This document shows, one piece after another, positions 1-7,827 of a stretch of DNA of 15,352 bases. The stretch lies in IMG/VR virus record IMGVR_UViG_2558860274_000010, positions 1-15,352 of that record; one strand, written 5' to 3'. The notes under the pieces are model-generated. The model made no database searches and had not been told where the DNA came from. It was given only the letters and a program-made list of their open reading frames with translations. A program made the translations under genes and the position numbers. This DNA comes from a virus. Taxonomy: Duplodnaviria > Heunggongvirae > Uroviricota > Caudoviricetes. Numbering within the stretch: position 1 is the stretch's first letter; every line of letters starts with the position of its first letter.

Positions 1-485
1 TTTGTTTTACCTCATTACAGATTTAAGGGTGAACAAATCCCTGCCATTGCTGGCATATAAGAATGAAACCGGATATTTATTACGGAACTGTTTTAAAGAC
101 CTGCCGGGATTTCGTTATTATCCTGGTGAATAACTTTATCGACCGGGTAACAGTTACCGGGAATTTTCTGTTCGGTTGCTGCAGTCACACACTCCTGCAT
201 TGTCCTGTGAACACTGACTGCAATATCAACTGGCTCTCCGGAAACAAGAAAAACTGTCAGAACAAGTGCAAATGCTGTATTCATTGCCAGCATCCTTTTT
301 GTATCGGACGTAAACGGGCCAGCATTGAAAGAATGCATATTTTATTTAATAACTCCCGTTCGTGTTTTCTCTTGTTAATGGCATCTTCAGTAAATACAGG
401 GTTACTGATAGTGACACCAATTTCAAAACAACCTTCAGACGTATTAACGTTTGGTAATAACGTTTCCATTATCGCGTCCTCAACA

Positions 486-794
486 ATGAATTTTGTGATG
501 CGATGCCTGGTGCCTCCAGGTGACGTTAACCAGTTAACAATTAACGCCGGATACAGAGAATGCATGACGTGTGGTAATCAGGCAGATGATCCGCATCACA
601 TCATTGGTCATGGACTGGGAGGGATGGGAACAAAGGCTGATGATTTGTTTGTTATTCCGCTGTGCCGTAAATGCCATAGCGAACTACACGCCGGGGTAAA
701 AGATTTTGAAGAAAAACACGGCAGCCAGCTGTTGTTGCTGATTCGTTTTTTAATGCACGCGAGAAATTCGGGTGTCCTGAAGTGGAAAGCATGA
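486..794 (+). CDS. nin-region Cys/His-rich zinc-binding protein (DUF1364/YbcO-like); start uncertain
   Basis: The C-terminal ~100 aa of the 63..794 frame carry a CxxC...HH...CxxCH pattern (CMTCGNQADDPHHIIGHG...CRKCHSELHAG) like small proteins found just upstream of rusA in lambdoid prophages. The stop codon abuts the rusA ATG (TGA 792-794, ATG 795). The frame is open back to 63, but the upstream part is Cys/Asn-rich and unprotein-like; ATG 486 or 495 are plausible starts. Confidence 0.45.
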   Translation: MNFVMRCLVPPGDVNQLTINAGYRECMTCGNQADDPHHIIGHGLGGMGTKADDLFVIPLCRKCHSELHAGVKDFEEKHGSQLLLLIRFLMHARNSGVLKWKA

Positions 795-1160
795 ATGACT
801 GAACGCATAGAATTTGTTTTGCCTTACCCGCCAACGGTGAACACTTACTGGCGACGTCGTGGCAGCACATATTTTGTATCAAAAGCCGGTGAGCGTTATC
901 GCCGTGATGTGGCGCTTATTGTTCGCCAGCAGCGGCTGAAATTAAACCTGTCCGGAAGGCTGGAGATAAAGATTATTGCAGAGCCACCGGATAAACGTCG
1001 TCGTGACCTGGACAATATCCTGAAAGCACCACTGGATGCGCTGACGCATGCCGGACTTCTCATAGACGACGAGCAGTTTGATGAAATCAATATTGTGCGC
1101 GGTCAGCGCGTTCCTGGGGGACGGCTGGGCGTGAAGATTTACAAAATTGAGAGTGAGTGA
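795..1160 (+). CDS. rusA: Holliday junction resolvase RusA
   Basis: 121-aa ORF with clear similarity to E. coli RusA as recalled, including the PDKRRRDLDN region, length ~120 aa and a C-terminal GGRL motif. Translationally coupled to the upstream ORF. Confidence 0.85.
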   Translation: MTERIEFVLPYPPTVNTYWRRRGSTYFVSKAGERYRRDVALIVRQQRLKLNLSGRLEIKIIAEPPDKRRRDLDNILKAPLDALTHAGLLIDDEQFDEINIVRGQRVPGGRLGVKIYKIESE

Positions 1161-1168
1161 TCGTAAAT

Positions 1169-1711
1169 ATGATATACCCGGAAATTACAGGCAAAAGCGG
1201 CGAGCATTTACGTCTAAAAACGCTGGAAGCCGTCTGGATCCAGGGGAAATTACGGATGTGGGGGCGTTGGTCGTATATAGGTGGTGGCAAACCAGGAAAT
1301 ATGTTCAATCAGTTGCTGGCATCCAAAAAACTGACAAAAACCGCAATCAATGAAGCCCTGCGTAGAATCAGGGAGTCAGGGATTGATAAACCAGAGCTGG
1401 AAGCATTCTTGCGAGAGATGATCGCTGGCAGACAGAAGAGCTGGTTGTCTCACTGTACTGATGCAGAGGCGTTACGCATTGATGGGGTGATAAGTAAAGC
1501 GCTTGCACGTTATCCTGGATTGATTGATATCCTGCGGCAAAGGTACGAAGGGCGGGGGATGAGTAAACGCAAAATGGCTGAATTGTTGAATGAGGTGCAC
1601 CCGGAATGGTGTTTTAGTACATGCGAAAAGCGAATTGCTAATTGGTTGGCTGTTGCTGAATATGCGCTATACATCCCTATGCGAGAATCGTTTGCTCAAA
1701 AAATGTCTTGA
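1169..1711 (+). CDS. putative late-gene antiterminator (Q-like)
   Basis: 180-aa ORF (ATG 1169; the track's 1157 start is GTG) placed between rusA and a strong intrinsic terminator, followed by late-region genes. This is the canonical lambdoid Q position; identity rests on synteny, not on a recognised motif. Confidence 0.5.
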   Translation: MIYPEITGKSGEHLRLKTLEAVWIQGKLRMWGRWSYIGGGKPGNMFNQLLASKKLTKTAINEALRRIRESGIDKPELEAFLREMIAGRQKSWLSHCTDAEALRIDGVISKALARYPGLIDILRQRYEGRGMSKRKMAELLNEVHPEWCFSTCEKRIANWLAVAEYALYIPMRESFAQKMS

Positions 1712-1736
1712 TTTTTTACGCATAAACTGTTTCAAT
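1708..1736 (+). promoter_or_regulatory. candidate pR'-like late promoter (TTGATT-N17-TTCAAT)
   Basis: Sigma70-like hexamers directly after the Q-like ORF and about 60-90 nt upstream of the tR'-like hairpin. Assigned by position only. Confidence 0.25.
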
Positions 1737-1795
1737 CCAGCTACGCTTCGCAAAGCTATACCGCGAGGCGAATAGCAGACATGGACACCTGAAAG

Positions 1796-1819
1796 AACCC
1801 GCTTTATGCGGGTTTTTTT
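1796..1819 (+). terminator. intrinsic terminator (tR'-like)
   Basis: Perfect 7-bp stem AACCCGC/GCGGGTT with loop TTTAT, followed by a T-run (TTTTTTT). Sits about 85 nt after the Q-like stop. Confidence 0.7.
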
Positions 1820-1942
1820 ATGTCTGAAAAACGGCACAGAACATTAAACGCGCTGGTAGTTGTGAATACTGGTCTTTCAGCTTGCTGGCTTTTTCGACAA
1901 GAGGTATTGGTATGTCACGTTAACCGGAAAAGGGAAAAAAGC

Positions 1943-2140
1943 ATGCTAAAACAGCAGGATATGACCGAAACCGCCAGAGTGGTGTTTAATGAATTAAGCG
2001 TCACCGAACCGGCGACCGTCGGGGAAATTGCGCAGAATACTTACCTTTCACGCGAACGCTGCCAGTTAATACTGACTCAGCTTGTTATGGCGGGTCTGGC
2101 AGATTATCAGTTCGGTTGTTACAGACGCCTTCCGCAGTGA
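1943..2140 (+). CDS. small HTH-like protein (65 aa), function unknown
   Basis: ATG 1943 preceded by AAGGGA at spacing ~8. The segment ATVGEIAQNTYLSRERCQLILTQLVMAGLA resembles a helix-turn-helix. The track's 1820 start overlaps the terminator and is unlikely. Confidence 0.4.
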   Translation: MLKQQDMTETARVVFNELSVTEPATVGEIAQNTYLSRERCQLILTQLVMAGLADYQFGCYRRLPQ

Positions 2141-2290
2141 AGGCTTTTTAATTTGTGGTAATGGGCGGCTGGTGGGTGTTAGCGGCACCTGCCAGCCATC
2201 TGCTCATGCGTTGGGGTCACAAGCAAACCTCAGGCCCATCTGCTTTGCGCAAAAGCGGTATGAGCCTATCAGAGAAGTGCTTATTGATCT

Positions 2291-3340
2291 ATGATTAATA
2301 CTGTAAAAATATCCAGTTGTGAGTTAATCAACGCTGATTGCCTGGAATTTATCCAGACCTTACCGGAAAACTCTGTCGATCTGATAGTCACAGACCCGCC
2401 ATACTTTAAAGTGAAGCCCGAGGGCTGGGATAACCAGTGGGAGGGCGACGATGATTACCTGAAATGGCTGGACCAGTGTCTGGCGCAGTTCTGGCGGGTA
2501 CTGAAGCCTGCCGGAAGTCTTTACCTGTTCTGTGGTCATCGCCTGGCATCTGACACCGAAATCATGATGCGTGAGCGCTTTAATGTGCTGAACCACATTA
2601 TCTGGGCGAAGCCGTCCGGACGCTGGAACGGGTGCAATAAGGAAAGTCTGCGGGCGTATTTTCCGGCAACAGAGCGCATTCTGTTTGCAGAACATTATCA
2701 GGGACCGTATCGCCCGAAAGATGATGGCTATGTGGCACAGGGGCGCGAGCTAAAACAGCACGTCATGGCCCCGCTGATTTCTTACTTTCGTGATGCGCGT
2801 AAATCACTGGGAATAACGTCAAAACAGATAGCGGAAGCCACCGGAAAGAAAAACATGGCTTCGCACTGGTTTGGTACCAGTCAGTGGCAGTTACCGAACG
2901 AGGGTAATTACAACAAATTGCAGGCGTTGTTTGCGCGTGTTGCGGCAGAAAAACATCAGCGCGGGGAACTGGAAAAGCCACACCACCAGCTGGTCAGCAC
3001 ATACAGTGAGCTGAACCGGCAGTATACGGAACTGCTGAGTGAATATAAAAATTTGCGGCGGTATTTCGGTGTGACGGCGCAGGTTCCGTACACCGATGTC
3101 TGGACGCATAAACCGGTGCAGTACTATCCAGGGAAACATCCGTGCGAAAAACCGGCAGAAATGCTGCAGCAGATAATCAACGCGAGCAGTCGTCCGGGAG
3201 ACCTGGTTGCAGATTTTTTTATGGGTTCAGGTTCAACGGTAAAAGCGGCGATGGCACTGGGGCGTTGTGCGATTGGTGTTGAGCTGGAGACAGGACGTTT
3301 TGAACAGACAGTCAGGGAAGTTCAGGATTTAATCGTTTGA
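2291..3340 (+). CDS. DNA methyltransferase (N6-adenine or N4-cytosine, beta-class), apparently orphan
   Basis: 349-aa ORF with catalytic DPPY motif near the N-terminus (IVTDPPYF) and an FxGxG AdoMet-binding motif near the C-terminus (FFMGSGST). No restriction endonuclease partner is evident nearby. Confidence 0.8.
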   Translation: MINTVKISSCELINADCLEFIQTLPENSVDLIVTDPPYFKVKPEGWDNQWEGDDDYLKWLDQCLAQFWRVLKPAGSLYLFCGHRLASDTEIMMRERFNVLNHIIWAKPSGRWNGCNKESLRAYFPATERILFAEHYQGPYRPKDDGYVAQGRELKQHVMAPLISYFRDARKSLGITSKQIAEATGKKNMASHWFGTSQWQLPNEGNYNKLQALFARVAAEKHQRGELEKPHHQLVSTYSELNRQYTELLSEYKNLRRYFGVTAQVPYTDVWTHKPVQYYPGKHPCEKPAEMLQQIINASSRPGDLVADFFMGSGSTVKAAMALGRCAIGVELETGRFEQTVREVQDLIV

Positions 3341-3389
3341 AACGGATGGGATTGCAGAATTAATTACGCACCATTATTATTCTGCTACC

Positions 3390-3465
3390 GGCCCTTTAGC
3401 TCAGTGGTGAGAGCGAGCGACTCATAATCGCCAGGTCGCTGGTTCAAATCCAGCAAGGGCCACCA
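3390..3465 (+). tRNA. ileZ: tRNA with anticodon CAT (Ile2/lysidine type or Met; ileZ-like)
   Basis: Manual cloverleaf: acceptor GGCCCTT/AAGGGCC, D-arm GCTC/GAGC, anticodon loop CTCATAA, T-arm GCTGG-TTCAAAT-CCAGC, encoded CCA at 3463-3465. Confidence 0.85.
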
Positions 3466-3472
3466 TCACATA

Positions 3473-3549
3473 CCGCCATTAGCTCATCGGCAGAGAGCGT
3501 CAGCTTTCGAAACTGGCTGTGTGGGGCCCGGGTCCCCGATGGCAATCCA
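3473..3549 (+). tRNA. argN: atypical tRNA-Arg-like, anticodon TCG (argN-like)
   Basis: Manual fold: D-arm GCTC/GAGC, anticodon loop TTTCGAA with U33 and A37, encoded CCA at 3547-3549. Irregularities: two C-A mismatches at the acceptor end, one mismatch closing the anticodon stem, and a non-canonical T-loop CCCGGGT. Confidence 0.5.
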
Positions 3550-3562
3550 TTATCTGCATTAT

Positions 3563-3639
3563 GCGTTGTTAGCTCAGCCGGACAGAGCAATTGCCTTCTA
3601 AGCAATCGGTCACTGGTTCGAATCCAGTACAACGCGCCA
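3563..3639 (+). tRNA. argO: tRNA-Arg, anticodon TCT (argO-like)
   Basis: Manual cloverleaf: perfect acceptor GCGTTGT/ACAACGC, anticodon stem ATTGC/GCAAT with loop CTTCTAA, T-arm with TTCGAAT loop, encoded CCA at 3637-3639. Confidence 0.85.
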
Positions 3640-3776
3640 TATTCATTCTTCCAGATTTCTTCCGGCAGAGCCTTATACTGGAATATACCTGGCTCAGGAT
3701 ATTGTTGAAAATATTATATGTTTGTCAAAAATAAAAGTTCTGTTAAGTATTGATTGAGTGTTTGTTATACGGTCTA

Positions 3777-4103
3777 ATGGTTTTTTCAGTATTAAATATT
3801 TATCATTCATATGGTGTGGGTAGAGTGAATATTGATGAGGCGTCGGGGTGTTTCATCCTTAGGCAGCGTATTGATATAGTCAATGCAGCACGAGCAAAGG
3901 CCTTCAGCCGTTTGACAGTTTTGTTCTGTACTCCTGATCGTCTTTTGGGAAGAGACGTTATTATTCTGAATAGTGATGCTATACAGAGGGTTTGCGATGA
4001 GTTCATGGTTGCTAATTCAGAATTATTTGCTCTTGTTCAGGAGTACAACAGAATAGCCAGGACCTGTGGTATGGATGAACTTCGGATTACTCATCTGGGG
4101 TAG
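3777..4103 (+). CDS. hypothetical protein (108 aa from first ATG), unknown function
   Basis: Open frame 3750..4103 (TTG at 3750, first ATG at 3777) in AT-rich DNA right after the tRNA cluster. A TTGTCA-N17-TAAGTAT promoter-like element lies at 3721-3749. No convincing Shine-Dalgarno and no recognisable family. Confidence 0.3.
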   Translation: MVFSVLNIYHSYGVGRVNIDEASGCFILRQRIDIVNAARAKAFSRLTVLFCTPDRLLGRDVIILNSDAIQRVCDEFMVANSELFALVQEYNRIARTCGMDELRITHLG

Positions 4104-4494
4104 ATACATATCTGGATTATCACCTGTTACGGTAAAAAGTGATTGCTTACTGTTTTTGTGAATGGCATTGCAGCAGCCGGATAATGTCAGTGCTGGCTGA
4201 CGGTGTGCTGGTGGCGGGTGTGGTGGTTGTTGCTTTCCCGTTGCTGAAAAAGAAAACGCCAGACTGTTAGCCGGGTATCAGTTAGCGGGAGAAATTTTTA
4301 AATACTTCACAATTCAGGCGGTTGACTGTTGTCTGGTTTGCGGGGAGTTTGTTAAAAGAAACTGGCATGGTGAATCCCCCTGTGCGGTGGGGCAATCAGC
4401 GAGTAGGTATATGGGATAATCGCGGATTCAGGTGCTGGTACTGAATTCACCGGGAGGCACCCGGCACCATGCAATGGCACATAGCGCCACTCTC

Positions 4495-4524
4495 CAGCCC
4501 CTCTCCGGAGGGGCTGTTTATATT
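4495..4524 (+). terminator. intrinsic terminator-like hairpin
   Basis: 9-bp stem CAGCCCCTC/GAGGGGCTG with loop TCCG, followed by a T-rich tract (TTTATATTGATTTT) on the + strand. Lies immediately 3' of the stop of the minus-strand ORF 4518..4886. Confidence 0.4.
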
Positions 4525-4886
4525 GATTTTGTCAGATGTGAGTAAACTCCTGATGGACTTTGTTGTTTTAGTCCATAAGGACATATTTGCAGAGTGCAAC
4601 GGTTATTAAAGCATTCATTCAATACGTTATCTGTATTTGTAGGGCATTCCTGGCTGTTTTTGATTAAATTCCAGAATGTTTTATTGAATGGTACTACGTT
4701 GTAAATGGTTACAGGTAGCACTTTGTTATTGAGCATGATGCCTGTGTGAGTCAGTGTAAATATACTTTCAGGAGGTAAGAAAGCATCCGATTGATACCAG
4801 ATTATTAATTTTATTTTACTCCATATGACTGAAAAAGATATTCCGCATGATGGCTGGATAACTGTATCAATCACAATCCACTTCAT
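4518..4886 (-). CDS. hypothetical protein (122 aa), AT-rich cargo gene
   Basis: Minus-strand ORF with a good ribosome-binding site (AAGGAAAGTAA then ATG). Low GC compared with the flanks; no recognisable family or signal peptide. Confidence 0.4.
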
Positions 4887-5186
4887 TTACTTTCCTTGTT
4901 TATGCCTTGCTGGTGATGTTCTGAAAAGTATAAATGATATTTTTGAATTAAACCATAGAGCAGAATTATTTTTCTGATGTTGTTTATTGTTTATTTAAAT
5001 ACAGGGTGGTTTATATCTCGTCTTGTAGTTTATCCATGCATATCTGCTTGATAATCAGGTTTTTATTTAAGGTATGGTTTTGTGTTTTTTCTGTATAGAC
5101 TGGCCCCCTGAATCTCCAGACAACCAATATCACTTAAATAAGTGATAGTCTTAATACTAGTTTTTAGACTAGTCATTGGAGAACAG

Positions 5187-5552
5187 ATGATTGATGTCTT
5201 AGGGCCGGAGAAACGCAGACGGCGTACCACACAGGAAAAGATCGCAATTATTCAGCAGAGCTTTGAACCGGGGATGACGGTCTCCCTCGTTGCCCGGCAA
5301 CATGGTGTAGCAGCCAGCCAGTTATTTCTCTGGCGTAAGCAATACCAGGAAGGAAGTCTTACTGCTGTCGCCGCCGGAGAACAGGTTGTTCCTGCCTCTG
5401 AACTTGCTGCCGCCATGAAGCAGATTAAAGAACTCCAGCGCCTGCTCGGCAAGAAAACGATGGAAAATGAACTCCTCAAAGAAGCCGTTGAATATGGACG
5501 GGCAAAAAAGTGGATAGCGCACGCGCCCTTATTGCCCGGGGATGGGGAGTAA
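5187..5552 (+). CDS. insC: IS2 transposase OrfA (InsC)
   Basis: 121 aa beginning [21 protein letters not shown]..., preceded by GGAGAACAG. Matches IS2 InsC as recalled. Confidence 0.85.
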
Positions 5553-5722
5553 GCTTAGTCAGCCGTTGTCTCCGGGTGTCGCGTGCGCAGTTGCACGTCA
5601 TTCTCAGACGAACCGATGACTGGATGGATGGCCGCCGCAGTCGTCACACTGATGATACGGATGTGCTTCTCCGTATACACCATGTTATCGGAGAGCTGCC
5701 CACGTATGGTTATCGTCGGGTA
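5510..5722 (+). pseudogene. insD: IS2 orfB (insD) 5' fragment, truncated after codon 71
   Basis: [30 protein letters not shown]...PTYGYRRV matches the InsD N-terminus. The expected continuation is replaced from 5723 by unrelated sequence in the same frame. Confidence 0.7.
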
Positions 5723-6919
5723 CAGAAGAACCCGAAAAATGTGTTGCTGGCGGTGTGCTGGATGCAGGGAGAGTTTGACATGAGCGCCGCCACCCACGCA
5801 CAGCAACCTGCGCTGTTTACAGCCATGCTGACACAGTTTCGTGCTGACCTCTCCGTGTTTAACGCGCAGTGCCATGGTGGCAGTGCTGCAGATGTGCCGT
5901 GGATTTGTGGTGACACGACGTATTACTGGAAAAATACATACGCTACCCAGTACGACACCGTGTACGGCGGGTATAAAAACAGGGAGAGTGAGGGCGTTTA
6001 TTTTGTGCCCTTCATGACAGACGGTAACGGCGTCAATACCGCCACTAACGCGCCGGCAGAAGATCCGGATATTCCGGCATCAGGATATTACGGTGCGGCA
6101 TCGAGAACGAATGGAAACCAGGTATCATCAAACCGCCCGACACATTTCAGTTCATGGGCGCGCAGGAGCATTATTCCGGATCGTCTGGCAACCGCTATTC
6201 TGAACGCAGCCGGGCGCACCTCAGCCTTCATCAGTGGTAAGGCACCGGAAATCAAACCCTCGCCCGGCGGCAACACGCCATCGGGTCCGTCTGCAGATAC
6301 GTCCGTTCGCACAATCTCCCTGCTGCCGGCAGCCGGAGAGGCTGCTGCGCAGGGCTGGAGCATTAAGGATGGCGGAATTCAGTTGTCAGATGGTGTATTT
6401 AAGATCACCAAGCAGAGCAATAAAACCTGGTCCCTGACGCATCCGGTGGATGACGCAATTACCCTGCTGACACAGGGCGGCAGACTGACCTGTAAGTTCC
6501 GCCTGTCAGGCGCACTGACCAACAATCAGTTCGGGCTGGGGATTTATCTGTATACGGATGCTCCCGTTCCTGATGGTGTGGCGATGACGGGTACCGGTAA
6601 TCCGTTCCTGATGTCGTACTTCACTCAGACCACTGACGGCAGAGTGAATCTGATGCATCACAGGAAAGCCGGAAACACGAAGCTGGGGGAGTTCGGCGAT
6701 TACGGTAACGACTGGCAGACGCTGGAGCTGGTGTTCACCGCCGGCAGTGCCACGGTTACTCCGAAACTGAATGGAGTGGCTGGCCCGGCATTCCAGGTTA
6801 TAAAAGACGGTCTGACACTGGGACTGAATGCGCTGACGCTGACGGATGTTACAAAAAATGCAGCGTATGGCGTTGAGATAGAAAGTCTGGTGCTGGAGAT
6901 AAATGCACCGGCAGCATAA
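5723..6919 (+). pseudogene. 3' portion of a prophage nanS-p/YjhS-family sialate O-acetylesterase gene, 5'-truncated and fused in frame to the IS2 orfB stub
   Basis: Translation from 5723 ([19 protein letters not shown]...[12 protein letters not shown]...YGGYKN...[20 protein letters not shown]...[14 protein letters not shown]) parallels the C-terminal half of E. coli NanS/YjhS as recalled, followed by a ~250-aa extension. The N-terminal part of the gene is absent. The position between the tRNAs and the holin matches where Stx phages carry nanS-p. Confidence 0.6.
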
Positions 6920-7285
6920 TAAAAAAGAGCCAGCGACTGACCTGAAAGAAGACGCTGGCTAAAAGGCCTTATATGTTTGTAGAGACTTATTTTTCACAGA
7001 CAGCAATGATGCCTGTCAATATATTATCAATATGCGGATTGTTTCAGTTACAGATGCTTTATTAAGGAAAAAAACAGCCAGCACTGACTTTCGGTGGAGA
7101 GGTGCTGGCTCAGAAGGATAGTTGGATTTCACATGATACTTATGCCTGGCGGTATATTTTCTGACAGACAGTGACGGGTGTTGTCAAGATATTGTGTCAT
7201 TTATAACCTGAATCAGGGGAGGCCGGAATGTTATCTGGCATTTTTAGCAGAGCCTGAATGCCATAATCACGGCTCCCGGAGTTGG

Positions 7286-7321
7286 CCGTCAGTGGGTGAC
7301 ACTGGCGGTTTTTTTGTTTTT
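7286..7321 (+). terminator. intrinsic terminator upstream of the holin
   Basis: 9-bp stem CCGTCAGTG/CACTGGCGG (one G-U pair) with loop GGTGA, followed by TTTTTTTGTTTTT. Lies 45 nt upstream of the holin start. Confidence 0.5.
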
Positions 7322-7365
7322 CTTTACTTTCATTTTCTGTCGGCGGTGACGGAGACATACATCAG

Positions 7366-7572
7366 ATGGAAAAAATCACAACGGGTGTGTCATACACCAC
7401 GTCAGCGGTGGGGACGGGATACTGGTTACTGCAGCTGCTGGACAAAGTCTCTCCGTCCCAGTGGGTGGCAATCGGTGTGCTGGGGAGTCTGCTGTTTGGC
7501 CTGCTGACGTATCTGACTAACCTTTATTTCAAGATTAAAGAAGATAAGCGTAAGGTGGCGCGGGGAGAGTAG
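7366..7572 (+). CDS. class II holin, phage-21 S21-type pinholin
   Basis: 68-aa ORF closely resembling the phage 21 pinholin as recalled (two TMDs, GYW and [14 protein letters not shown] motifs, C-terminal [13 protein letters not shown]). GGAGA ribosome-binding site upstream. Confidence 0.85.
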
Positions 7573-7827
7573 TCGATGAATAAACAATACGAACTGGTTG
7601 TAAAATGAATATTTCTAACTGAAAAAACGTTCCATGAGGTAAGAAAAGGTCACAGGCAATCAATAACAGGACGTGATGAAAGACCCTTGCATTTGTGCGC
7701 TTTCTCTTTAGATAGCAGCAGATACTGAAAATCTGAGTTGTCGGGGAGTCAGGGATACAGCTGTGCAAGAGTTGGTCATTGTGATTCCATTGAAATCCTG
7801 TATGCCATGAAGGGCAGGATTTTATGG

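Follow-up and report, generated by a model that had tools for sequence, protein, structure and literature searches.

A small winged-helix gene and a structured leader RNA accompany an M.EcoGII-type adenine methyltransferase gene in lambdoid prophages

Introduction

The closest described relative of the locus treated here is M.EcoGII, a prophage-borne orphan methyltransferase of Escherichia coli O104:H4 C227-11. According to passages of Murray et al. (2018, PMC5778455), this enzyme methylates adenine in any context, on double-stranded DNA, single-stranded DNA and, less well, RNA. Passages of the same paper report that its gene cannot be maintained under an unregulated promoter and is toxic when cloned alone, that it is silent in the lysogen, and that the enzyme is fully active alone in vitro; the authors propose that it is turned on as the prophage enters lytic growth and then defeats restriction (PMC5778455). 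Here, we analyze a stretch of 15,352 nucleotides (nt) of a caudoviricete virus record (IMG/VR IMGVR_UViG_2558860274_000010, positions 1 to 15,352; hereafter the window), which carries a methyltransferase gene of this family, preceded by a 65-amino acid (aa) open reading frame (ORF) and by a spacer that encodes a structured leader RNA. We find that the small gene and the methyltransferase gene form a mobile cassette with conserved features that may keep the methyltransferase in check; the main new result is the structured RNA in the spacer.

Systems with a comparable layout are known from Mu and Mu-like prophages. In the latter, homologues of Com precede non-specific adenine methyltransferases (FluMu Hin1523, Pnm1 Nma1821, and Hia5; PMC3299994), and in Mu itself the zinc-finger protein Com opens the translation-inhibition structure (TIS) of mom (PMC6483171). 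Restriction–modification (R-M) systems provide a third point of comparison through their controller (C) proteins, which are characterized by an Xre-type helix-turn-helix (HTH; PF01381), C-box palindromes, and control of an endonuclease gene.

Already known are the enzyme family, where it lies in prophages, and its silent state in lysogens. Our searches of the literature, Rfam, PHROGs, NCBIfam, and PADLOC found no description of the obligate winged-helix partner, of the leader RNA, or of the kinship of this leader with those of lambda, P22, and HK97. The main text of the M.EcoGII paper contains no mention of an upstream ORF, nor the word "upstream" itself, and the passages of it that were matched contain no leader RNA (PMC5778455).

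Results

A methyltransferase of the M.EcoGI/M.EcoGII family

The larger ORF encodes 349 aa and matches PF01555 (N6_N4_Mtase; E = 2e-44). Its motifs run in the order DPPY (N-terminal, residues 35–38), central target recognition domain, and FxGxG (C-terminal), which is that of the beta class, and its best solved-structure relatives are beta-class enzymes. DPPY and FMGSG (residues 310–314) are both intact and do not vary among 11 diverged homologues with identities as low as 58%; a loss of catalytic residues, which the initial annotation of this DNA had thought worth checking, is not what we find. The protein is identical at 315 of 349 positions (90%), without gaps, to a 349-aa M.EcoGI/M.EcoGII-family enzyme of an E. 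coli O104:H4 prophage (GI and GII copies are not distinguished in this comparison), and at 311 of 348 positions (89%) to the enzyme of phage 1720a-02, a homologue named in PMC5778455. M.EcoGII and M.EcoGI share with it not only length and beta-class motif order but also the status of prophage-borne orphan and the position behind an antiterminator, while the ~10% divergence from the window enzyme lies mostly in the central region. By these criteria it is a predicted beta-class N6-adenine DNA methyltransferase of the M.EcoGI/M.EcoGII family. In PADLOC, it matches generic type II and orphan methyltransferase models only.

The target specificity had initially been regarded as unreadable from the sequence. 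Because of the ~90% identity to the O104:H4 enzyme and 89% to that of 1720a-02, non-specific N6-methyladenine (m6A) formation is nevertheless a clear inference for this allele, which is known from sequence alone. Homologues from O111 strains, with 92–93% similarity, are listed as "nonspecific" (PMC6602927). An anti-restriction function expressed with the late genes, which the initial annotation put forward, is the likely role of such an enzyme, and is also what the M.EcoGII authors propose (PMC5778455).

The small gene and the methyltransferase gene move as a unit

The small ORF lies directly upstream of the methyltransferase gene in every intact locus examined, from Escherichia to Plesiomonas. 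These loci were reached in three independent ways—i.e. through the small protein, through the methyltransferase, and through an RNA pattern that selects only the 5′ arm of P2, a helix of the leader described below. Among 34 species-representative loci found via the small protein, 32 of the 33 that can be assessed carry the methyltransferase, whose ATG follows the stop codon of the small ORF by 142–153 nt (134 nt in one locus, L026). When the search starts from the methyltransferase (80 viral contigs), the small ORF is present at the same distance in 74/74 contigs with enough upstream sequence. A pairing this consistent goes well past what chance would give. Distant homologues of the small protein (hidden Markov model E-values of 1e-14 to 1e-4) are again followed by an N6_N4_Mtase gene, here behind antiterminators of the lambda-Q or phage-82 type. 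The cassette is thereby found behind at least four antiterminator types in different phages and, because the fixed order and spacing recur across loci, we conclude that it moves as a unit; the Q-like antiterminator gene of the window is context, and lies outside the mobile cassette.

The cassette is also common, occurring in 2203 of 5426 complete E. coli genomes (~40%) with a median of two copies. In Shiga toxin (Stx) phages, it is located just upstream of the tRNA–stx region.

Exceptions to the pairing are mostly decay products. For example, one locus (L127) has the small ORF and a partial leader with the methyltransferase deleted, another (L020) a truncated small ORF and the leader, and in a third (L205) the small ORF is joined directly to genes that normally lie 3′ of the tRNAs. 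A chromosomal orphan homologue of 70 aa (helix 3 RCQLILTQLELASL; L202/L203 2501–2713, e.g. GCA_000327265.1 BAHA01000021.1) sits between a Mla/Pqi-like transporter operon and a DUF1398 gene, and has its own GGAGG ribosome-binding site and terminator, with no methyltransferase, leader, or upstream block; its index entries amount to 31 blocks of the contig collection (24 contigs read). One leaderless lineage (L193–L195, 3001–3270, e.g. CP054157.1 584772–590966) carries a diverged cassette (helix 3 CEFLLTQFEIAGF), in which a strong intrinsic terminator comes after the small gene and the methyltransferase has a canonical AAAGGA-N8-ATG in place of a structured leader. This lineage keeps the block upstream of the small gene, in the form CTTGCTG-N12-CAGAGTTAC.

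The small protein is a predicted minimal winged helix

We find that the small ORF is a genuine gene whose protein product is kept by purifying selection. Its frame is open from position 1820, the start common to all homologues is the ATG at 1943, and the Prokaryotic Genome Annotation Pipeline (PGAP) annotates the same 198-nt coding sequence in the identical E. coli record. The protein has homologues in Escherichia, Salmonella, Klebsiella, Citrobacter, Enterobacter, Proteus, Providencia, Mixta, Plesiomonas, and further genera, and these conserve both the start codon and the N-terminal signature MLKQQDMT. Third codon positions vary while residues are kept—e.g. the invariant Leu42, Leu44, and Leu47 each appear with 5–6 codons—and comparisons with other genera give proportions of 0.08–0.17 for nonsynonymous differences (pN) and 0.62–0.85, i.e. 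saturated, for synonymous ones (pS). The concern that the ORF might be non-conserved or untranslated is answered by this conservation and coding pattern.

An AlphaFold2 (AF2) model based on a 24-sequence alignment (pLDDT 90, pTM 0.76) predicts a minimal winged helix, with H1 at residues 4–16, H2 at 26–33, H3 at 37–49, and the wing at 53–62. The top Foldseek matches, with a TM-score of up to 0.82, are IclR-type winged HTH domains; the other matches include MarR, O-methyltransferase dimerization domains, SelB RNA-binding winged helices, and Z-alpha-like viral proteins, and every match has E ≥ 1e-3. These fold matches are generic, the viral ones equally so, and an m6A "reader" winged helix, as in DpnI-like domains (PMC11037411), was set aside because they give it no specific support. 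At the level of sequence, Pfam returns sub-threshold winged-helix families only (best match TrmB, 18 bits against a cut-off of 25.6), NCBIfam gives zero matches, no PADLOC model matches, no solved-structure relative was found, and PHROGs places the protein in phrog_331, "unknown function". The family is narrow, with 84 clusters among 1.84 billion representatives.

The second signature of the family is helix 3 (RCQLILTQLVMAGL). Its sequence, (R)CQLILTQL(V/A)MAGL (CQLILTQLVMAGL), is nearly invariant and unusually hydrophobic, while identity over the remaining residues drops to 41%. We ruled out that the invariant RCQLILTQL is caused by an RNA or DNA element overlapping it, since the Leu and Thr codons are free at third positions. 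The protein is slightly acidic (net charge about −1 to −2 by hand count), and has two conserved cysteines, C40 and C59.

Such a protein could conceivably act on the enzyme itself. As an antitoxin-like safety partner, it would bind and inhibit, or chaperone, the methyltransferase and neutralize the leak in the lysogen until late expression outruns it. A small upstream gene followed by a toxic enzyme is the order of type II toxin–antitoxin (TA) pairs, although typical TA pairs overlap or couple tightly, and here a terminator-like hairpin and 150 nt stand between the genes. The acidity of the protein and its hydrophobic, near-invariant helix 3 fit an interface of this kind, but the winged-helix fold uses all 65 residues and leaves no toxin-binding tail, and the chromosomal orphans keep the same helix 3 without a methyltransferase. 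Likewise, the persistence of the coupling to the methyltransferase where the leader is missing, and the toxicity of the M.EcoGII gene cloned alone, have to be set against the full activity of M.EcoGII alone in vitro (the latter two from passages of PMC5778455). On balance, we consider an antitoxin-like partner quite unlikely.

The initial annotation had likened the pair to a controller protein and methyltransferase of an R-M system. The resemblance stands insofar as an orphan methyltransferase has a small partner of DNA-binding fold beside it which, as with C proteins, plausibly times or limits expression. It does not extend to membership in the C-protein family, because the small protein has no PF01381 (HTH_3) match, is a winged helix in the AF2 model, and has no nuclease to control. 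Indeed, no restriction endonuclease gene is found next to the methyltransferase, the neighbors being RusA, the Q-like gene, and tRNAs, in line with the absence of an adjacent nuclease noted at the outset. A scan for C-boxes (GACTNNNAGTC, 1 mismatch) gives 4 matches in the window, which is chance level, and none between 1700 and 2300. By contrast with C proteins, Xre-type HTH, C-box, and endonuclease-gene control are all three absent here.

A conserved leader RNA separates the two genes

Conservation is higher in the 150-nt spacer than in either gene. Between genera whose copies of the two proteins differ strongly, the mean column identity of the spacer is 78%, and its p-distance from the window copy is 0.22–0.38 where synonymous sites are saturated. 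A coding spacer or upstream ORF was rejected, since neither a 47-codon ORF (2155–2298) nor an ATG at 2260 is conserved and the genera differ by 1-nt indels.

RNAalifold predicts a leader structure with covariation, which was then refined to five helices in two domains (Table 1). In a plain MAFFT alignment of 34 variants, 92% of the cells are paired, compared with 29–42% in slid controls. A covariance model of the leader (R1) finds exactly one copy per locus, at 98–165 bits, and in the resulting model-based alignment of 46 sequences 94.1% of the cells are paired (slid controls, 27–42%). There, 13 base pairs have changed on both sides, and 95 cells are changed on both sides compared with 29.8 ± 4.3 in shuffles, a count reached in 0/500 shuffles; since this alignment is fitted to the structure and its sequences are related, these covariation figures are supportive and are not formal probabilities.

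A fairer test is a scan of viral contigs with a pattern that fixes only non-consensus bases in the 5′ arm of P2. Every true match has the compensating 3′ arm (e.g. GGUAAG/UUUACC, UAAAAG/CUUUUA, GGAAAG/CUUUCC, and GGCUAG/UUGGCC), and in the Proteus copy the sequence of P2 is entirely different and its pairing is retained. G·U pairs are frequent in the leader, which indicates that the structure belongs to the plus-strand RNA. The window leader alone folds into the same architecture, with a minimum free energy (MFE) of −72.9 kcal/mol and a z-score of −3.5. Rfam 15 has no match in 2140–2290 at E ≤ 10.

The last helix of the leader abuts the methyltransferase start

The 3′ strand of helix P3 consists of nt −1 to −6 and −9 to −12 before the methyltransferase AUG. 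This helix is present in the MFE fold of the window leader, and its upper part covaries (AAGC/GCUU, GGAC/GUUC, and GGGC/GCCC). In leader-bearing loci, no purine-rich Shine–Dalgarno (SD) sequence is found at −5 to −13 of the AUG. Taken together, the position of P3 and the missing SD suggest that the leader would hold translation initiation of the methyltransferase down.

A further hairpin, P0, covers the stop codon of the small ORF and runs into a U-rich tract. Its arm sequences differ between genera of Enterobacteriaceae with the pairing retained, it is part of the MFE fold, and most of the scanned loci have a terminator-like hairpin after the small gene (6 of 24 lack one). To judge from its form, P0 looks like an intrinsic terminator.

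The start region also holds a GATC (Dam site), at −5 to −2 of the methyltransferase ATG (window 2286–2289), which is conserved in ~42 of 46 aligned copies. In Proteus-type leaders, the P3 pairing partner of this GATC is also GATC. Dam methylation matters at Pmom of Mu.

Part of the leader is shared with late leaders of lambda, HK022, and P22

Matches to R1 are also found in lambdoid phages without the cassette. The only match on HK022 is the late leader at 37103–37216 (L206; 26.2 bits), and those on lambda (NC_001416 45022–45135, L207 1223–1336; 28.6 bits) and P22 (L208 916–1036; 16.8 bits) are in the same place, between tR′ and the holin gene. Judged by eye, the homology extends over Domain I and the P3 5′ arm (GUGAAAGCGGGUGGCAGG...CCUGCCGUUUUGCCCGUG...GGUCACGAACAAAUC, compared with the Proteus-type leader), and P2 is compensated between lambda (GGCAGGAGG/CCUCCUGCC) and P22 (GGCAAGAG/CUCUUGCC). 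The lambda segment folds as two long hairpins (−50 kcal/mol, z-score −5.5). The late-leader segment shows 96–98% identity among lambda, HK97, Sf6, and CUS-3 (in CUS-3 it carries the annotation "bsq3; boundary sequence") and 74–79% identity in P22-like phages, and is present in a total of 185 phage records.

The late leaders of lambda, HK022, HK97, and P22 therefore resemble the methyltransferase leader in Domain I (P1 and P2) and the P3 5′ arm, in their position after the late terminator, in their strong fold, and in having no Rfam family (the lambda and P22 homologues have no Rfam match at E ≤ 1). They differ from it in that they have no P4–P5, end ~50 nt before the holin start, and have no winged-helix gene or methyltransferase beside them; HK022 shows no remnant of the small gene. 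From this comparison, the methyltransferase leader is an expanded member of a general lambdoid late-leader RNA, with P4–P5 added and the AUG placed at its 3′ foot.

This kinship could mean that the leader is simply a generic late-leader element—i.e. a structure for RNase III processing or stabilization, or a "boundary sequence" for module exchange—and that the small ORF is an independent moron. The R1 matches between tR′ and holin gene, the near-identity of the annotated boundary segment across lambda, HK97, Sf6, and CUS-3, and its two stable hairpins all agree with such a view, as does a small gene with its own upstream block and terminator-like end. A recombination linker, however, explains nucleotide identity and not compensatory changes or G·U pairs, only the methyltransferase version has P4–P5 and a P3 that ends exactly at the AUG, and the synteny of small gene and methyltransferase across deep divergence is unexpected of an unrelated moron. 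For these reasons, we give a purely generic leader only a small chance.

RNase III processing sites in lambda late RNA were reportedly described by Daniels and colleagues in 1988, to go by the title of their paper (cited in PMC7547250). The lambda leader hairpins may be those sites, but this is only a lead. A put-like antiterminator was also considered and rejected, as R1 has no match at the put regions of the HK022 early promoters and both size and position differ: the HK022 put RNAs are ~70-nt two-stem structures just downstream of PL and PR (PMC9378689).

The layout of the locus also recalls Mu com–mom, in which an anti-restriction gene for a toxic adenine modification of broad specificity is directly preceded by a small ORF, with late-only expression (presumed here) and an RNA structure at the start of the modification gene. 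The resemblance is one of layout and not of homology. Com is a Cys4 zinc finger of ~40–62 aa, whereas the small protein has two Cys in a winged-helix fold; the methyltransferases of Mu-like prophages are of the alpha class, and their hosts are transposable Mu-like phages, compared with the beta class and lambdoid phages here; and the ~135-nt, five-helix leader is, unlike Mu, kin of lambda-type late leaders. By analogy with Com, the small protein could be a translational activator that binds the leader on the late transcript, opens P3, and exposes the start. Winged helices can bind RNA hairpins (the fold matches include SelB–SECIS complexes), the leader is "off" in its default fold and lacks an SD, which would invite an activator, and Com homologues do stand before non-specific adenine methyltransferases in Mu-like prophages (PMC3299994). 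Even so, the L193–L195 lineage keeps the small gene, the block, and the methyltransferase without a leader, lambda, HK022, and P22 keep Domain I without the winged-helix gene, and the small protein is not basic. The winged-helix protein is not needed for the Domain I RNA, because lambda and P22 keep the one without the other. A possible alternative switch helix, formed by the 3′ arm of P1 with the 5′ arm of P3, is only 71% paired, and its single covarying pair is confounded by a two-clade split in the phylogeny. A Com-like activator is therefore unlikely in our judgment.

A broader version of the idea, tentative and somewhat improbable, is that the winged-helix protein and the expanded leader together form an unrecognized riboregulatory switch, a lambdoid, non-homologous counterpart of Com and the TIS. 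More generally, the two-hairpin element would be an uncatalogued conserved functional RNA of lambdoid late operons, including that of lambda.

A conserved block precedes the small gene

The DNA upstream of the small ORF contains a conserved block (Table 1) in all phage-borne copies, including the leaderless lineage (L195) and an AT-rich distant copy that also has no leader (L200). It reads as a putative weak sigma-70-like promoter (TTGCTG-17-TAYnTG), an operator, or both. RNA structure was also considered for the block and rejected; RNAalifold finds none there, and a pairing seen by eye between UAUGUC and GACAUG of the small ORF does not covary. With the tR′-like terminator upstream and P0 downstream, the block would give the small gene a promoter–gene–terminator ("moron-like") layout. 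Since this block and not the leader is the constant companion of the small gene, and since lambda-type phages have Domain I in the absence of the gene, a DNA-controller role is favored for its product. The block, P0, and the leader RNA had all gone unnoticed in the initial annotation.

Locus context

The setting of the window is a lambdoid prophage of E. coli, with bases 1700–3400 being 100% identical to the FDAARGOS_1059 chromosome. The gene order is DUF968 gene, RusA (795–1160), Q-like gene, hairpin, 65-aa ORF, 150-nt spacer, methyltransferase, and tRNAs. This confirms that the small ORF and the DPPY methyltransferase come first after the late terminator, as initially annotated: both ORFs are located there, and the 7-bp GC-rich hairpin with its T7 run (1796–1819) was found by a second terminator scan after one had missed it. 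A hairpin and T-run occupy the equivalent place in nearly all related loci.

Table 1. Positions in the window of the features of the cassette and of its surroundings.
Feature	Position	Strand	Basis or detail
Q-like late antiterminator, DUF1133 type	1157–1711	+	Pfam DUF1133 E 6e-103; weak Phage_antitermQ; phrog_753 "anti-termination protein Q-like"
Candidate pR′-type promoter	TTGATT 1708–1713, 17 nt, TTCAAT 1731–1736	+	Read by eye
Candidate short leader transcript, pR′-type promoter to tR′-like terminator	1708–1819	+	
tR′-like terminator	Hairpin AACCCGC/GCGGGTT 1796–1814, T7 run to 1819	+	Read from sequence; hairpin scan
Conserved block CTTGCTG-N12-(C)AGAGTTAY-nTGTrTGTCAC	1881–1918	+	Alignments of related loci
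65-aa winged-helix ORF	1943–2140	+	ATG 1943; AAGGGA 1930–1935 upstream
P0 hairpin over small-ORF stop codon, with U-rich tract	2127–2154	+	Terminator scan: GCCTTC-CGCAGT-GAAGGC + TTTTTAATTT
Structured leader RNA of methyltransferase mRNA (~135 nt, five helices)	2158–2299	+	Covariance model R1, 126.8 bits
Domain I (P1, P2)	2161–2207	+	Refined RNAalifold structure
Domain II (P3, P4, P5)	2214–2290	+	Refined RNAalifold structure
Methyltransferase ORF, 349 aa	2291–3340	+	PF01555 E 2e-44
tRNA-Ile2 (CAU)	3390–3465	+	ARAGORN (calls it Met); Rfam tRNA 72.5 bits
Degenerate tRNA-like stretch	3473–3546	+	Rfam tRNA 22.2 bits, below gathering score 29
tRNA-Arg (UCU)	3563–3639	+	ARAGORN; Rfam tRNA 70.1 bits

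The promoter scan made no call at the candidate pR′-type promoter (1708–1736). Window positions 1745–1818 (+) have a weak match to Rfam isrK (RF01394; 21.6 bits against a gathering score of 50). In Salmonella Gifsy-1, isrK is a short pR′-derived RNA. The match is compatible with a 6S/StxS-like short transcript that would start at the promoter read by eye and end at the 1796–1819 terminator.

A tRNA cluster (3390–3639, +, in the window) usually follows the cassette, and PGAP and the phiP27 record annotate ileZ/argO there, upstream of stx in Stx phages. The window tRNAs correspond to the ileZ–argN–argO arrangement that precedes stx in these phages, and the window has no stx genes. In phiP27 (L002 3689–4918), a 409-aa gene of the GIY-YIG nuclease family lies between the Q-like gene and the small ORF, directly 5′ of the cassette; none is present in the window.

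Downstream of the cassette, the prophage is degraded by insertion sequence (IS) elements. An orfA remnant of the IS3 family (5142–5552) runs into a chimeric 469-aa ORF with a C-terminal DUF6645 (region 5142–6919), in a position held by a SASA-family esterase in related prophages, and a complete IS66 element (tnpA, tnpB, and transposase) is found at 8261–10594. At the end of the window, an ORF on the minus strand (14699–15352) that ends at the last base has a weak AvrPphF-ORF-2 domain match (E = 6e-7). This Pfam family takes its name from a plant-pathogen avirulence (type III effector) locus, and the ORF may be prophage-borne effector cargo.

Discussion

Our analyses support well an M.EcoGII-type hypermethylation cassette, placed where only Q-antiterminated late transcription would reach the enzyme, with P0 and a leader that would occlude the start as extra insulation. 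The whole explanation that we prefer goes further, and we give it an even chance: the locus would be a self-contained late cassette with four layers of containment, in which the small protein is a DNA-binding controller. The payload would protect progeny phage DNA from many restriction systems through adenine methylation in any context, an activity toxic to the living host, and because of this toxicity the cassette appears built to stay off in the lysogen and to be expressed only once Q-modified RNA polymerase has read through from pR′. Leak control is needed because pR′ is constitutively active and terminated in lysogens (PMC7547250). Containment would begin with the tR′-like terminator, continue with the terminator-like P0 over the small-ORF stop codon and with the leader, whose last helix pairs the 12 nt 5′ of an AUG lacking an SD, and be completed by a dedicated winged-helix protein encoded just upstream. 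The latter may be expressed from a weak promoter/operator of its own (the conserved block), as a promoter–gene–terminator unit. It may also control its own synthesis and restrict leaky expression of the methyltransferase up to the point at which late transcription overwhelms it. Functionally, it would be like the C protein of an R-M system or Mu Com, and homologous to neither.

Several observations weigh against this account. The block matches a sigma-70 promoter poorly (the last base of its −10 element is G), the promoter scan made no call there, and it has no clear dyad symmetry. A hydrophobic, near-invariant helix 3 and a mildly acidic protein suit a protein–protein interface equally well, and the intact orphan copies without a methyltransferase mean that the small protein may have an independent function. 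With the window prophage degraded by IS elements, the cassette may not be expressed there at all. Moreover, all of the timing and mechanism at this locus, from expression restricted to the late phase and occlusion of translation to what the winged-helix protein acts on and in which direction, is inferred from sequence. For the small protein, we rank the possible roles as DNA controller, Com-like RNA activator, protein-level inhibitor or partner, and unrelated moron, in this order.

M.EcoGII is sold as a reagent and serves as a model of promiscuous m6A writing. In the searchable literature, nothing is published on how its toxic gene is controlled in native prophages, and a conserved partner protein together with a covarying leader RNA are concrete, mutable handles on that control. 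The kinship with the unannotated folded leader of lambda also makes RNase III processing of lambda late RNA testable by comparison. Overall, the findings add no new principle; they describe a widespread and directly testable regulatory module for a much-used enzyme, and an uncatalogued structured RNA in the best-studied phage. They also suggest that Mu-like and lambdoid phages may have converged on the combination of a small upstream regulator and a start-occluding RNA for their hypermodification genes.

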